From: Escherichia coli
GTDB lineage: Bacteria; Pseudomonadota; Gammaproteobacteria; Enterobacterales; Enterobacteriaceae
Assembly (NCBI RefSeq): GCF_003334765.1
Contig: NZ_QOWT01000004.1
Reading direction: 5' to 3' (one strand)
Length of the DNA stretch: 64,000 nt
Below, piece by piece: positions 9,463 through 9,697 of the stretch (positions are counted from its first letter, which is position 1; each line of letters begins with the position of its first letter). Position numbers and translations under genes: made by a program. The notes below the pieces were generated by a model. It had not been told where the DNA came from. It ran no database searches and was given only the letters and a program-made list of their open reading frames with translations.

Positions 9463-9697
9463 TTCCCCTCCCGGGAAATAAAAGATGAGCACTTTCTATT
9501 CTGCATTGCCGCTAAGACTTTTCCCATCACTTCGGGGACAATATTTTTTTATCAAAACGTCGCTTTGATAGAGAGTTTTTATCAAATATGTGAATAATGC
9601 AGAAAATGGCATTTTGGACTTTTCACAGGGTCTGGTTGCGCAGGTATAGTAATACTTACAGCGTATTAAAGACGTTACGGGAAGGAGTAGGTATAGA

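Follow-up and report, generated by a model that had tools for sequence, protein, structure and literature searches.

The divergently oriented genes mdtH and rimJ of Escherichia coli are separated by a gap of 235 bp (positions 9463-9697 of the window, i.e. the whole 64,000-nucleotide stretch of DNA that was analysed). The ATG of mdtH is at 9462 (minus strand) and that of rimJ at 9698 (plus strand); addition of 1,115,864 converts a window position p into the corresponding position in MG1655. mdtH is an efflux pump gene, for fluoroquinolone and tetracycline, whose regulation is almost undescribed. The rimJ-yceH-yceM-murJ operon serves ribosome maturation and lipid II flipping; its last gene, murJ, is essential and encodes the lipid II flippase. 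No paper mentioning mdtH and rimJ together was found in a literature search. A 601-bp query surrounding the repeats described below was matched with 100% identity in many complete genomes.

The original prediction placed in this gap a perfect inverted repeat with 6-bp arms (ATCAAA-N7-TTTGAT, 9551-9569), embedded between two copies of TTTTTATCAAA. Both copies of this 11-bp direct repeat were found at 9546-9556 and 9576-9586 (i.e. 30 bp from start to start). The inverted repeat is at the predicted position, but its full arms are 7 bp long (TATCAAA, 9550-9556; TTTGATA, 9564-9570). The odds of chance occurrence were examined using 2000 dinucleotide-preserving shuffles of the 235-bp intergenic region. 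Inverted repeats with a spacer of ≤15 bp were found in 57% of shuffles for arms of ≥6 bp and in 20% for arms of ≥7 bp, indicating that a 7-bp inverted repeat is unremarkable by itself. Direct repeats of ≥11 bp within 60 bp occurred in 0.25% of shuffles and both types of repeat jointly in 0.1%, and the exact ATCAAA-N7-TTTGAT pattern is expected 0.02 times per 64 kb. The direct repeat, unlike the inverted repeat alone, is remarkable within one sequence. The exact 11/11 direct repeat is confined to Escherichia, the second copy being TTTTCATCAAAA, TTCTCATCGAAAA or TATTCATCGAAAA in other genera. The main evidence that the repeats are more than chance is their conservation across genera.

Conservation was assessed by aligning the regions upstream of rimJ in the loci of 80 species-representative genomes (RimJ 91-100% identical). 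The genera sampled include Escherichia, Salmonella, Citrobacter, Klebsiella, Raoultella, Enterobacter, Kosakonia, Leclercia, Lelliottia, Trabulsiella, Phytobacter, Pseudocitrobacter and Kluyvera, among others. Column conservation was determined for 75 Enterobacteriaceae species of >20 genera, all with different intergenic sequences, and 74 of these were scored for half-sites. A search for MdtH homologues gave only close relatives with at least 81% identity, and the comparison covers Enterobacteriaceae. In place of the predicted layout of one palindrome between two direct repeats, the alignment resolves a 12-bp motif, TTTYGATRRARA, that occurs three times with its orientation alternating (i.e. 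minus, plus, minus). The elements of this array are as follows.

9537..9557, no strand assigned: invariant 21-bp block GACAATATTTTTTTATCAAAA, comprising a UP-like tract and half-site 1; identical in 57/75 species
9546..9557, minus strand: half-site 1, TTTTGATAAAAA (plus strand TTTTTATCAAAA), the best conserved copy, inside the invariant block; GAT core in 74/74 species
9558..9562, no strand assigned: spacer between half-sites 1 and 2; 39 different 5-mers in 75 species, constant in length and free of indels
9563..9574, plus strand: half-site 2, CTTTGATAGAGA; core AT in 74/74 species and G in 70/74
9576..9587, minus strand: half-site 3, ATTTGATAAAAA (plus strand TTTTTATCAAAT); ATC core 30 bp from the core of half-site 1 in 74/74 species

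Half-site 2 is common to two inverted repeats, one formed with half-site 1 (centre 9560) and the other with half-site 3 (centre 9575). When read in a common orientation, the three half-sites are nTTTTGATAAAAAA (site 1, minus), GyTTTGATwGAGAG (site 2, plus) and wTTTyGATGAAAAC (site 3, minus). The core AT of every half-site was present in all 74 species and the adjacent G in 70-74. Variants of half-site 2 include TCTTGATAGAG, CTTTGATTGAG and, for Klebsiella, GAACGATAGAG, and half-site 3 is represented in other genera by TTTTCGATGAGAAC, ATTTTGATGAAAAC and similar sequences. Core-to-core distances of 16 and 14 bp (sum 30) were maintained, with no indel, in 74/74 species; four apparent spacing exceptions arose from anchoring of the search pattern, and the distance between sites 1 and 3 was 30 bp in these species as in all others. 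Each of the 19 consecutive columns from 9537 to 9555 was at least 95% identical in the 75 species. The other variants of GACAATATTTTTTTATCAAAA seen among these species differ from it by 1-2 bases, and directly beside the block lies an unconserved run of 7 bases (9558-9564). The block at 9537-9557 is a longer and cleaner footprint than the -35 and -10 hexamers of rimJ. Ten matches to TTTYGATRRARA with ≤1 mismatch were detected on both strands of the window, three of these being within the 42 bp of the array, and no second array of this motif was found in a scan of the window and the local loci.

Conservation across the Enterobacteriaceae, which had been proposed as a check of the repeats, was thus borne out by both the 19 near-invariant columns and the fixed 16/14-bp spacing. 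These observations support strong purifying selection on the repeats. The array is a real and unusually well-conserved cis-regulatory module and not an artefact. A protein site would be expected to show this combination, in which the half-sites are conserved, the spacer varies in sequence at a constant length and compensatory changes are lacking.

Promoter elements and further conserved blocks lie on both sides of the array.

9498..9503, minus strand: putative mdtH -10 hexamer CAGAAT, within the conserved plus-strand block TATTCTGC (9497-9504)
9521..9526, minus strand: putative mdtH -35 hexamer TGGGAA, within the conserved plus-strand block TTTTCCCA (9519-9526)
9538..9548, minus strand: UP-element-like A/T tract AAAAATATTGT, at about -57 to -47 of the predicted mdtH start
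9598..9608, plus strand: conserved block GCAGAAAATGG, between the array and the rimJ -35
9622..9650, plus strand: rimJ core promoter TTCACA-17-TATAGT (-35, 9622-9627; -10, 9645-9650), matching 10/12 consensus positions

The rimJ promoter (P1) has the best score in the region, with a predicted start near 9657, which places the repeat array at approximately -70 to -110. This core promoter is near-invariant in all species, including those without the repeats. No high-scoring minus-strand promoter was found in the mdtH/rimJ intergenic region. As the highest-scoring minus-strand candidate varies between species, TGGGAA-17-CAGAAT is the sole conserved promoter-like arrangement found on this strand. 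TTTTCCCA is present in 60/75 species, the other variants seen being one base off, and the gap between TATTCTGC and TTTTCCCA consists of 14 nt of variable sequence whose length is constant in 70/70 species, giving a 17-nt spacer between the hexamers. A TGGGAA-type hexamer, a 17-nt spacer and a -10-like hexamer were present at this location in 73/75 species, with exact TGGGAA-17-CAGAAT in 52. The score of this arrangement is low at ~4.7 bits versus 12.8 for rimJ P1. We infer a weak sigma-70 promoter with a start near 9491 (9490-9492) and a leader of ~29 nt. A rival use of the same two blocks would be the plus-strand arrangement TTTTCC-17-TATTTT, with a score of 7.7. The distance from the array to either promoter shifts by 1 bp in some species, indicating that there is no strict helical phasing.

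Estrem et al. reportedly derived a distal UP subsite consensus of AWWWWWTTTTT or AAAWWTWTTTT. The tract AAAAATATTGT fits 9-10/11 positions of this consensus, at a distance measured from a start site that is itself predicted. Comparison with known UP elements (e.g. rrnB P1, with a distal subsite at -57 to -47) reveals a similar A/T tract at the expected distance from the putative -35. The array region differs in having no A-rich proximal subsite, and its 19-bp invariance exceeds what UP elements usually show. The T-run of the first repeat, within the 21-bp block, is probably best read as a UP-like element of the mdtH promoter. This reading, and all positions given relative to the mdtH start, depend on the predicted mdtH promoter.

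Two longer-range repeats were also observed between the flanking blocks. TTCTGCATT (9499-9507) and AATGCAGAA (9596-9604) form a perfect 9-bp inverted repeat, 88 bp apart, in E. coli; one arm overlaps the putative mdtH -10 and the other the GCAGAAAATGG block, and the core TTCTGC/GCAGAA is kept across genera. A 10/11 direct repeat, 101 bp apart, is formed by GACTTTTCCCA (9516-9526) and GACTTTTCACA (9617-9627). The putative mdtH -35 falls in the first copy, on the opposite strand, and the rimJ -35 in the second, indicating that the same sequence type is used in both orientations.

Natural losses of the array were examined for their association with the flanking genes. In five Kluyvera species (L034, L044, L045, L061 and L070), grxB-mdtH is absent from the region upstream of rimJ. 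A shared 44-bp deletion has removed sites 2 and 3, leaving the rimJ -35 and -10 intact, and all five species have changes in both CCCA (-35 block) and ACAATA (UP-like tract). These losses indicate that the elements are tied functionally to mdtH and that rimJ P1 needs none of them. In Intestinirhabdus alba (L065), mdtH is still present but little of site 1 and neither of the other two half-sites survives, indicating that at least one lineage can do without the array. The deletion in this species is ~58 bp and also takes the GCAGAAAATGG block, such that the core promoters are now ~37 bp apart. The Kluyvera loci retain a remnant of the mdtH control region with its 44-bp internal deletion, and grxB-mdtH is replaced, ~320-540 nt upstream of rimJ, by a small divergent TatE/TatA-like gene (MGEISVTKLLVVVVLFVLVFGTKKLGS...) beside yceB.

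Insertions were also detected on the mdtH side of the array. A human E. coli strain, LR-31 (L082, i.e. NZ_AP027520.1), carries a 768-bp IS1 whose junction was confirmed at window 9516-9524, with a 9-bp target duplication, GACTTTTCC. A second IS1 isolate, EH08-18-36 (NZ_CP063511.1), is indicated by a two-piece match together with the IS1 annotation. IS1 lies between the putative mdtH -35 and -10, separating mdtH from the UP-like tract and the array, and may rewire mdtH expression. Between the mdtH start codon and TATTCTGC, an additional 24-125 bp of unrelated DNA is present in several species of Citrobacter, Lelliottia, Huaxiibacter and relatives (L008, L011, L015, L017, L019-L022, L033, L054, L071, L077, L078 and others), with intergenic regions of 258-360 bp as compared to 235 bp. 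This extra mdtH-leader sequence could be a REP-like or other insertion.

From the pattern of conservation, it is very probable that the repeats form a control region for protein binding, immediately upstream of mdtH and possibly common to rimJ. The proposal of a regulator site shared by the mdtH and rimJ promoters is upheld as regards a divergent control region that is under purifying selection and has a protein-site-like pattern, but the deletions tie this region to mdtH. The array is familiar in kind, as an upstream operator array accompanied, in a divergent control region, by an A/T element close to the promoter; its particular motif is an uncharacterised one. Class I-type upstream operator arrays share with this region a location 55-110 bp upstream of both starts, with a core promoter on either side, as well as conserved half-sites in a dyad-like orientation with a spacer that varies in sequence and not in length. 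Unlike these arrays, the mdtH/rimJ array has no adjacent regulator gene, contains three half-sites rather than two or four, and has core spacings of 16/14 bp as compared to the 10-11 bp typical for simple dimers.

On balance, we lean towards a reading in which the array and the UP-like tract are the core of a conserved cis-regulatory region between back-to-back promoters, where a family-wide oligomeric protein sets mdtH transcription. mdtH would be transcribed from the weak sigma-70 promoter with a -35 of TGGGAA (9526..9521), a -10 of CAGAAT (9503..9498) and a start near 9491. The A/T tract at 9538-9548 would act as a distal UP element contacted by the C-terminal domain of the RNA polymerase alpha subunit and would offset the poor mdtH -35. 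The three motifs, at approximately -61, -77 and -91 of mdtH and -105, -89 and -75 of rimJ, would be bound by an oligomeric, sequence-specific and family-conserved protein acting from upstream on mdtH as either an activator or an upstream repressor. As the middle motif is part of both dyads, separate dimers cannot fill both of these; either one larger oligomer would span the three motifs or the dyads would be occupied in turn.

A more specific version of this model is that the array is the operator of an uncharacterised Enterobacteriaceae-wide regulator with a recognition motif, TTTYGATRRARA, that databases do not yet contain, whose alternative occupancy of the two dyads would switch between mdtH and the rimJ-yceH-yceM-murJ operon. 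We regard this version as unlikely. We know of no regulator with a TTTYGATRRARA-like motif. In agreement with the original remark that the site was not recognised as a named operator, no tested operator consensus fitted the array across species, with DnaA, H-NS and Lrp giving partial or uninformative matches. CRP sites (TGTGA-N6-TCACA, ≤2 mismatches) and consensus sites for the marbox (MarA/SoxS/Rob), Fur, ArgR and PurR were each found in 0/74 species. FNR sites with ≤2 mismatches were found in 4/74 species and nowhere in the window. The FNR/CRP-family site (TTGAT-N4-ATCAA) has pentamers, TTGAT and ATCAA, that are also present in the array, but the array is arranged as ATCAA-N9-TTGAT (i.e. with reversed arms) and TTGAT-N11-ATCAA. 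The half-sites (TTATCAAAA and related sequences) are without the C required at positions 6 and 8 of a DnaA box (TTWTNCACA). Sites of the LacI family were rejected by eye as the central CG is not conserved, and sites for NagC/Mlc, OxyR, KdpE, CusR, UvrY and AraC and promoters for sigma-54, -32, -E and -28 were likewise rejected by eye. A perfect DnaA box, TTATTCACA, adjoins half-site 3 at 9589-9597 on the minus strand and is one of five in 64 kb; on the plus strand this sequence is TGTGAATAA, which is also a lone CRP-like half-site. The box is kept within 1 mismatch in only 32/74 species.

A speculative candidate for binding to the array is YceH (UPF0502; window 10293-10937), whose gene is co-transcribed with rimJ in 80/80 loci. 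As yceH is retained even where the half-sites have been lost, its distribution does not discriminate for or against YceH as an autoregulator. Structures of YceH have been solved (5VYV, 5U8J and 3BZ6), and the only NCBIfam label is 'hypothetical protein'.

Equally unlikely is that the array is an architectural site for nucleoid proteins (i.e. IHF, Lrp, H-NS or Fis), or intrinsically bent DNA, that shapes the common upstream region. The region is A/T-rich with T- and A-tracts, including two T-runs ~30 bp apart. The core ATCAA is that of IHF, and sites 1 and 3 fit the IHF consensus WATCAANNNNTTR with one mismatch each; the TATCAA core occurs three times in the array with an A/T tract adjacent. 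The TTR of IHF is missing, however, its positions falling in unconserved columns, and an exact IHF site was found in 1/74 species. Fis consensus matches with ≤1 mismatch were similarly limited to 1/74 species. In 70/74 species, 9537-9551 agrees with the Lrp SELEX consensus at 12/15 positions, but this is uninformative as the 64-kb window contains 78 matches of equal quality. The H-NS nucleation motif TCGATAAATT was present in 25/74 species with ≤2 mismatches, its resemblance to the array being of TCGAT/TTGAT to the core. Nucleoid-protein sites are degenerate and rarely invariant over 19 bp, and bending alone would need no conserved GAT cores.

It is distinctly unlikely that the conserved bases represent RNA polymerase elements only, i.e. 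a UP element with TTGATA -35 hexamers, -10-like tracts and overlapping secondary promoters on both strands. The TTGATA present in each half-site matches 5/6 positions of the -35 consensus, the UP-like tract is rightly placed for the predicted mdtH promoter, and plus-strand promoter-like arrangements are present as TTATCA-17-GAAAAT (score 8.5) and TTTTCC-17-TATTTT (7.7). However, on neither strand does any TTGATA have a conserved -10 partner 16-18 bp away, and site 3 is TCATCG in most genera, which is a poor -35. A strict 16/14-bp spacing of three alternating motifs is also not a promoter property.

A specific protein that could bind the array is LsrR, the tetrameric AI-2 quorum-sensing repressor of the SorC family. 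The array would, on this account, be the LsrR operator of mdtH, with LsrR binding to the repeats and repressing mdtH until released by phospho-AI-2. LsrR is the only protein reported to bind mdtH/rimJ intergenic DNA in vitro. LsrR-His6 shifted a probe of the whole 235-bp intergenic region, amplified with primers corresponding to window 9463-9482 and 9678-9697, and mdtH mRNA was increased in an lsrR deletion and decreased on lsrR overexpression (PMC7597812). QseB did not shift the same intergenic probe (PMC7102498). No binding site was mapped in either study (PMC7597812, PMC7102498), and the LsrR shifts occurred only with protein in the 1-8 micromolar range, with no site mapping or non-specific competitor described (PMC7597812). 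LsrR footprints published in 2026 are paired T-tracts, NNNTTTTNN--NNNTTTTNN (PMC13393413), and T-tracts flank every half-site in the array. The LsrR arm ATTTGTTCAAAACTC matches ATTTGATAAAAACTC of site 3 in 13/15 positions, but this likeness is inside the range of shuffled sequences (score of 20 versus 17.4 ± 2.4, maximum 26). The boxes of the lsr region are TGAACA-21 nt-TGTTCA (PMC5137460; also read in locus L083). These boxes, in the lsrR/lsrA intergenic region, resemble the array in that AAAT/ATTT flank the arms and in belonging to a divergent control region. They differ in that the array has ATC/GAT cores, 13 and 11 nt apart, rather than TGAACA/TGTTCA, 21 nt apart. TGAACA is absent from the mdtH/rimJ region in 74/74 species, the array core is GAT rather than GTTC, and its arms are spaced by 16/14 bp as compared to ~27 bp for LsrR. 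LsrR is consequently a weak candidate for binding to the array on sequence grounds, and its acting as the repressor of mdtH through these repeats is quite improbable.

Finally, the inverted repeats could form a nucleic-acid structure, either alternative leader-RNA hairpins 1:2 and 2:3 (i.e. attenuator-like) or a DNA cruciform; this is highly improbable despite a middle arm that pairs with either neighbour, the classic alternative-hairpin geometry, and a minus-strand RNA hairpin z-score of -2.2, since the repeats show no compensatory changes. No double-sided substitution was detected in 19 candidate pairs across 74 species; site 1 is fixed as its partner varies (e.g. A:C in 11-18 species at three pairs), and neither site 1 nor site 3 compensates for the T-to-C and G-to-A changes of site 2. 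The stems are A/U-rich and weak (-8.3 kcal/mol with a z-score of -1.2 for the plus strand; -6.9 kcal/mol for the minus strand), an Rfam search of the repeat region gave no match, and the predicted start sites leave the array untranscribed. Each half-site is conserved for itself, which is a signature of protein recognition.

The occurrence of IS1 in the mdtH control region of one confirmed and one probable clinical isolate hints that this region is a target for adaptive rewiring. The segment at 9535-9590 is a defined probe, with which the published claim of direct LsrR action can be checked. An element of ~50 bp, stricter in its conservation than the promoter hexamers around it, marks where to seek the missing regulator of mdtH.
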